Source: Octopus vulgaris
Taxonomy: Eukaryota
Assembly (NCBI GenBank): GCA_951406725.2
Contig: OX597816.1
Location: forward strand, 163,246,001-163,310,000
Length of the DNA: 64,000 nt
Direction: 5' to 3'
The notes under the pieces were generated by a model. It was not told the DNA's origin. It made no database searches and saw nothing but the letters and a program-made list of their open reading frames with translations. Within the stretch, counting starts at the first letter, position 1. Every line of letters begins with the position of its first letter. The translations under genes and the position numbers were made by a program. Positions 50,400-50,497 of this stretch are shown here, piece after piece.

Positions 50400-50497
50400 C
50401 TCGACGGCCCTGTGCGAGGTCACTAGAGATAGCGAGCCATTCAGATGGAACCGCGAATGGCTCGCTATCTCTAGTGACCTCGCACAGGACCGTCGAG
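50400..50497. repeat. 43-bp-arm GC-rich inverted repeat with a 12-nt loop
   Basis: 50400-50442 vs 50455-50497, with a single C/A mismatch. Confidence 0.97.

Follow-up and report, generated by a model that had tools for sequence, protein, structure and literature searches.

Which process places a striking, seemingly orphan hairpin in the middle of repeat-rich octopus DNA, and does such a structure point to a gene for a functional RNA? The question is raised by positions 50400 to 50497 of a stretch of 64,000 nucleotides from contig OX597816.1 of the Octopus vulgaris genome (hereafter the window), in which two long, almost perfectly complementary arms face each other across a short loop. The original prediction, made from the letters of the window, put forward a miRNA or hpRNA precursor or an ADAR substrate as its lead reading, with a recent foldback duplication or the terminal hairpin of an integrated foreign element as alternatives. 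The analysis presented here traces the hairpin to a LINE retrotransposon, and the best reading of the locus is that of an ordinary by-product of LINE integration, for which no function is inferred. The orphan hairpin thereby finds an explanation in retrotransposition and, unless expression data come to speak for it, should not count as a candidate for an RNA gene.

The hairpin

A repeat search over 49900-51000 reported a single inverted repeat, with arms of 43 nt each at 50400-50442 and 50455-50497 that are 98% complementary and separated by a spacer of 12 nt. The sole mismatch between the arms is C50408 versus A50489, which turns into a G-U pair on the minus strand and is paired in the minus-strand fold. 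The hairpin has a GC content of 0.59 and contains 10 CpG dinucleotides versus 8.6 expected, and within the 64-kb window neither the arm nor the 35 nt that follow it has a second copy at up to three mismatches. On all of these points the original prediction was accurate: it had described 43-bp arms, a 12-nt loop, a single C/A mismatch that becomes G-U on the minus strand, a GC-rich and CpG-rich composition, and no second copy in the window. When a 118-nt region around the hairpin was folded and compared with 200 shuffles, the plus strand gave a minimum free energy of -92.6 kcal/mol (z -14.4) and the minus strand one of -94.8 kcal/mol (z -14.6), values that were equalled by 0 of the 200 shuffles in either case.

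A truncated copy of a dispersed LINE

A search with 50400-50640 as the query against the octopus's own 2.8-Gb genome revealed that 50442-50580 is a dispersed repeat of 139 bp. Of the left arm it takes in only the final base, but it includes both loop and right arm and continues for another 83 nt. All 40 scored places elsewhere, out of 833 first-look candidates, are 93-97% identical to 50442-50580, and each of the 29 loci that were fetched (L002-L030) aligns to 50442/5-50580 and to nothing else nearby, with the homology starting at 50442-50445 and ending at 50578-50583. Exact genome copies number 59 for a 24-mer of the right arm and 207 for a 15-mer of the tail. For 23 of the 29 loci, the homology that the copies share among themselves extends upstream and there enters an ORF that carries a YADD motif. 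Pfam searches identified an RVT_1 domain on L027 (E 8.9e-24) and L002 (E 2e-7) and, upstream of RVT_1, an Exo_endo_phos domain (E 9.3e-9) in L032, a longer copy behind L002. In both L002 and L027, the RVT_1-bearing ORF pieces are followed by the C-terminus that is also seen in the hairpin copy.

The copies have a common 3' end: in 29 of 29, the stop codon is followed after about 10 nt by a (CAAGTA)n-like tail, with which the copy finishes. At the 5' side they vary, with scattered ends and sampled lengths from 191 to more than 900 nt, and direct repeats of 6-12 nt occur in the family, for example 12 nt at L018 and 11 nt at L030. Together, the (CAAGTA)n-like 3' tails and the scattered 5' ends are a signature of target-primed, 5'-truncating retrotransposition. 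Judged by its sequence features, the dispersed family is an APE-type non-LTR retrotransposon (LINE), and 50442-50580 is the 3' terminus of that family. Its short 3' UTR and simple-repeat tail resemble those of RTE elements. RTE-clade LINEs such as RTE-2_OV have been described from octopus genomes (PMC9115989), likewise with APE and RT and in a large, repeat-rich genome of the coleoid type, a likeness at the level of described features.

With the family in hand, the insertion can be read from left to right on the plus strand. It opens with the left candidate target-site duplication (TSD), TGCCTC at 50397-50402, which is the longest direct repeat between the two flanks and whose final 3 nt, CTC, are at the same time the opening 3 nt of the left arm, thereby forming a microhomology at the flank junction. 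The left arm itself (50400-50442, minus strand) repeats 50455-50497 in antisense and departs from it at C50408 only; it abuts the unique upstream flank, and its place coincides exactly with the point of 5' truncation, where C50442 fits both the left arm and the element. The loop (50443-50454, plus strand) is ordinary LINE sequence and provides the opening 12 nt of the sense-oriented truncated copy, and the right arm (50455-50497, plus strand), as the sense original, belongs to the stretch that codes for the C-terminus of the LINE ORF. The remnant of this C-terminus, ending in ...EWLAISSDLAQDRRAWTAMVLDAVRTKEEAGSTRPG, extends over 50443-50565 on the plus strand with the stop codon TGA at 50563-50565, and in-frame translation of the right arm leads to EWLAISSDLAQDRRAWTAMVLDAVRTKEEAGSTRPG and then the stop. 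A very short 3' UTR with one (CAAGTA)n-like tail unit (50566-50582, plus strand) forms the 3' end of the insertion, and the right candidate TSD, again TGCCTC (50583-50588, plus strand), comes directly after the tail.

Two remarks made on first inspection have to be revised at this point. Transposon ends had been declared missing, but a LINE 3' tail is present at about 50575-50582; the statement that no TA TSD occurs was incomplete, as the unit is bracketed by the candidate TSD TGCCTC. A direct repeat of at least 6 nt in such a placement was obtained in 2001 of 200,000 random flank pairs (0.010), and a length of 6 nt is at the short end of the 6-12 nt range of direct repeats in the LINE family.

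The relationship between the two arms is revealed by a rare variant that both of them carry, T50472 in the right arm and A50425 in the left. At position 50472, C accounts for about 98% of the contig depth in four runs, and T is found in only 3 of the 29 loci. That both arms have the variant indicates that the left arm was copied from the hairpin copy or its template, not from another LINE, and the left arm is not an independent insertion because it is without the element's 3' end. The sequence of the left arm corresponds, reverse-complemented, to 50455-50497 of the same copy. Relative to the family majority the hairpin copy has 5 differences in 139 nt, and the arms differ from each other at 1 position in 43. 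Folding of the 146-nt tail compared with shuffles (z 0.04) provided no structured 3' module that might explain the stop at 50443.

Origin of the left arm

The hairpin constitutes the 5' end of a 5'-truncated LINE copy of roughly 180 bp, and it is probable, with a fair margin of doubt, that its left arm was generated by the cDNA copying itself at insertion. Target-primed reverse transcription would start at the tail (about 50582) and run leftward to 50443. The 3' end of the cDNA would then snap back and switch template onto the cDNA itself, 12 nt back, and copying from there would span 40-43 nt (50455 to 50497). Subsequently, the folded-back cDNA would join the upstream target DNA via the CTC/GAG microhomology inside the 6-bp TSD, and after insertion one substitution would have been gained between the arms. 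The minus strand, read 5' to 3', does contain the cDNA from the tail to 50443, then sense 50455 to 50497 and then the upstream flank. At the inversion junction the visible microhomology amounts to 1 nt, C50442, and none can be seen by which the 3' end of the cDNA could have primed at a point 12 nt back.

A variant of this model invokes twin priming, in which the 3' end of the upstream nick (..CTC) would prime on the RNA at GAG 50495-50497, 40 nt would be copied, and a switch to the first cDNA would follow, resulting in the same product as snap-back. The product alone fits both routes, yet snap-back seems to us the better choice, as the inverted part is, in its entirety, a duplicate of the direct part next to it. 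Twin priming was reportedly described by Ostertag and Kazazian in 2001 for 5'-inverted L1 insertions, and the octopus copy resembles it in having an inverted 5' part, a direct 3' part, one candidate TSD and microhomology at the upstream junction. In classic twin priming, however, the inverted part stems from a more upstream portion of the RNA than the direct part, and the two overlap slightly or leave a small gap; here, all 43 inverted nt duplicate the direct part, and no upstream sequence is included.

A parallel is offered by insertions mediated by the R2 protein. Snap-back 5' junctions of precisely this kind, in which upstream target DNA is fused to antisense insert, are reported for them (PMC11371274); at the octopus locus, too, the upstream target adjoins antisense sequence of the element and then the sense version of that sequence, where a truncated insertion has its 5' end. 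The R2 case is engineered, relies on a restriction-like endonuclease, is specific for rDNA and takes place in human cells, whereas the hairpin belongs to an APE-type LINE copy that arose naturally in the germline of an invertebrate. For L1, a preprint reports small-hairpin inverted duplications as well as twin-priming intermediates (bioRxiv 10.1101/2024.12.14.628481). We infer the fold-back mechanism from one instance plus analogy with these systems.

Did the inverted arm have to arise during integration, or could it have been added to a finished insertion? A normal truncated LINE might later have suffered a break or a replication template switch at its 5' junction, with DNA repair folding the end back. 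We consider this course of events unlikely, although several observations leave room for it: the divergence between the arms (1 in 43) is no higher than that of the copy (5 in 139 nt), which would allow a younger arm, the candidate TSD is weak at 6 nt, and the same preprint (bioRxiv 10.1101/2024.12.14.628481) describes short inverted duplications that result when resected ends anneal to themselves during repair. The break would, however, have had to fall exactly at the junction of flank and element, a coincidence that the integration-coupled model is spared, and the 40-43 nt would have had to land between the left TGCCTC and the first base of the element. Going by the 6-nt TGCCTC and the exact position of the inverted piece at the 5' junction, the arm probably formed during integration, so that the fold-back would most likely belong to the insertion and be no free-standing duplication. 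The earlier suggestion of a recent foldback duplication was thus essentially right, the left arm being an inverted duplicate of 43 nt of the LINE copy. The suggestion of a terminal hairpin of an integrated foreign element captured one half of the matter, namely that the hairpin lies at the terminus of a mobile element, but the structure is an accident of one copy.

Read as a product of fold-back at integration, the locus shows cleanly what a fold-back 5' junction looks like in nature, here for an APE-type LINE of an invertebrate. Descriptions of junctions of this type come mainly from human cells with engineered R2 and L1 systems. Fold-back LINE copies would also constitute one route by which long perfect inverted repeats, which are potential sources of double-stranded RNA, are seeded in genomes.

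Readings as an RNA gene

The lead reading of the original prediction, a lineage-specific miRNA or hpRNA precursor or an ADAR substrate, is unsupported by these results: the structure is derived from a retrotransposon, and the Rfam comparison yielded only a chance match below threshold. In a wider reading, a transcript of the hairpin would serve as an hpRNA or endo-siRNA source directed against the LINE, as a young miRNA precursor or, within a host transcript, as an ADAR substrate. A near-perfect stem of 43 bp would make a strong double-stranded RNA if transcribed, but a perfect stem of this length is longer and more perfect than the stems of canonical animal pre-miRNAs. Rfam searches with the hairpin returned no miRNA family at E up to 1, so that a family match is lacking, and the best hit, a bacterial sRNA model with 29 bits against a gathering score of 100, is a matter of chance. 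A host gene is likewise not evident, as the window has no long domain-bearing coding ORF: a Pfam scan of 82 of the 103 listed ORFs of at least 110 aa, the 21 omitted ones being overlapping frames of the same repeat stretches, found only low-complexity noise, at 28.1-28.7 and 31.3-32.4 kb.

Contigs from RNA-labelled runs do match the LINE part of the locus, with 4-6 differences, which suggests that other copies of the family are likely expressed. Across 49900-52580, the contigs of four runs guessed to be RNA (X17, X18, X20 and X21) cover only the repeat-derived parts, with zero cover on the unique flanks 49900-50439 and 50620-50709. The hairpin is like TE-derived hairpin RNA and miRNA loci in that a long inverted repeat is built from transposon sequence; unlike them, it is a single accidental copy, and this accidental nature also speaks against a role as RNA. 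Taking both sides together, a function of the hairpin as RNA is quite improbable. An miRNA, hpRNA or ADAR reading could hold only insofar as, trivially, every 43-bp duplex would be a double-stranded RNA substrate once transcribed. A more specific scenario, to which we give slightly less credence still, would have the fold-back transcribed as part of a host transcript and the duplex either diced to endo-siRNAs, which would act in trans on several hundred LINE tails in sense and antisense orientation, or hyper-edited by ADAR. If true, the locus would represent a newborn TE-silencing hpRNA locus in a cephalopod.

Support from read contigs

Fold-back chimeras are known in long-read data, and a chimeric or fold-back long read could in principle have placed the palindrome in the assembly. 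Logan contigs (k=31) from four runs, X1, X3, X4 and X5, were placed on 50000-51000. The left flank and the arm up to 50438 are contained, with 0 differences and including the arm-specific C50408, in a contig of 431 nt from X3 and in another from X5, of which 439 of 543 nt were placed; the two runs belong to two studies with two coded organism labels. Both contigs end at 50438, exactly where the 31-mers turn into repeat sequence. On the other side, a 210-nt contig from X1 spans the right junction (50551-50760) with 2 differences. No joint that skips the insertion occurs in the contigs of X1, X3, X4 and X5, among which X1 and X4 leave the left flank without cover.

Both outer junctions are thereby confirmed independently by short-read contigs, and the continuity from arm through loop to arm is given by the assembly alone. 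An assembly artefact would be in keeping with a palindrome that short-read contigs do not bridge, but two runs from two studies tie the unique left flank to the left arm without a single difference, the contig of a third run crosses the right junction, and arms of just 43 nt between unique flanks are unlike fold-backs on the scale of reads. We therefore regard an artefact as very improbable.

Recurrence in the genome

If the fold-back were a feature of the element, it should recur at other copies. A head-to-head pattern, consisting of an arm 15-mer and its complement with a gap of 0-150, matched the hairpin locus only in the whole 2.8-Gb genome. The corresponding pattern with the best-conserved tail 15-mer had 0 matches versus 207 single occurrences genome-wide, in a comparison that covers exact matches and fold points within about 100 nt upstream of the 15-mer. 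An inverted duplicate of a copy's own 5' part within 250 nt upstream was found at 0 of the 29 other copies by a scan that picked up the hairpin of the window, its positive control. With one copy in the genome, the hairpin unit is a one-off and not a feature of the LINE element. An inverted repeat with a short spacer might speak for a MITE or another DNA transposon bounded by terminal inverted repeats, but this reading is refuted for all practical purposes, the right arm being LINE coding sequence and the head-to-head unit occurring once in 2.8 Gb with no further copies.

The copy numbers also qualify how the hairpin had first been described. It had seemed apparently unique, which holds for the hairpin unit but not for its sequence, the right-arm 24-mer having 59 exact genome copies. 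Conversely, hundreds of dispersed copies, which had been named as the mark of a MITE, exist of the arm sequence alone; the hairpin unit lacks them and is no MITE.

Related elements and the surroundings of the hairpin

The last roughly 139 nt of the LINE are also carried by a SINE-like non-autonomous element, found at L003, L006/L007, L012, L022 and L016. Its body measures about 170 nt and ends in ...CCCACGAAACTTCTATGAAT[TC]C, and ARAGORN detected no tRNA-like head on it. At five loci the join between SINE-like body and LINE tail corresponds to 50442-50445, no more than 2 nt from where the hairpin copy is truncated. L016 represents a longer variant with 18 more LINE nt and about 38 extra nt. 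L006 and L007, about 3.1 kb apart on G000:C9, are SINE-like copies inside a local duplication of about 2.3 kb with 99.9% identity, and at L007 the duplicated stretch is bordered by a run of N.

The LINE family shows another type of partial inverted duplication at L011 (G000:C4:164055503-164055710), where an inverted 40-nt piece of the element's 3' end (query 140-179, opposite strand) lies about 30 nt downstream in a tail-to-tail arrangement. Upstream of the long LINE copy on G000:C11, L032:2887-3336 (minus strand) contains an ORF fragment with a Pif1 2B domain (E 8.8e-14), probably a Helitron or Pif1-helicase remnant beside the LINE.

In the window itself, a small palindrome lies at 50241-50277, 120 nt upstream of the hairpin; it consists of TGCAACCGATCATGC, a 7-nt spacer and GCATGATCAGTTGCA, with 14 of 15 positions complementary, and was missed by the repeat search at seed 9. 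Downstream of the hairpin follow extremely abundant short repeats at 50714-50849, 50884-51069 and 51790-52580, which reach a summed contig depth of 10^5 to 10^6 in DNA runs and are also present in RNA-labelled runs. The repeat at 50714-50849 opens with a tRNA-like GTGGCCCAGTGGTTAGG...GGTTTCGATTCC motif, and ARAGORN called no tRNA on this repeat; the repeats just downstream of the hairpin are probably tRNA-derived SINEs. Microsatellites are very frequent in the surrounding 20 kb (44000-64000), for which TRF lists 78 rows; among them are (TA)n and (AT)n arrays of 200-400 bp and, at 49354-49654, a (TC)n array of 300 bp.
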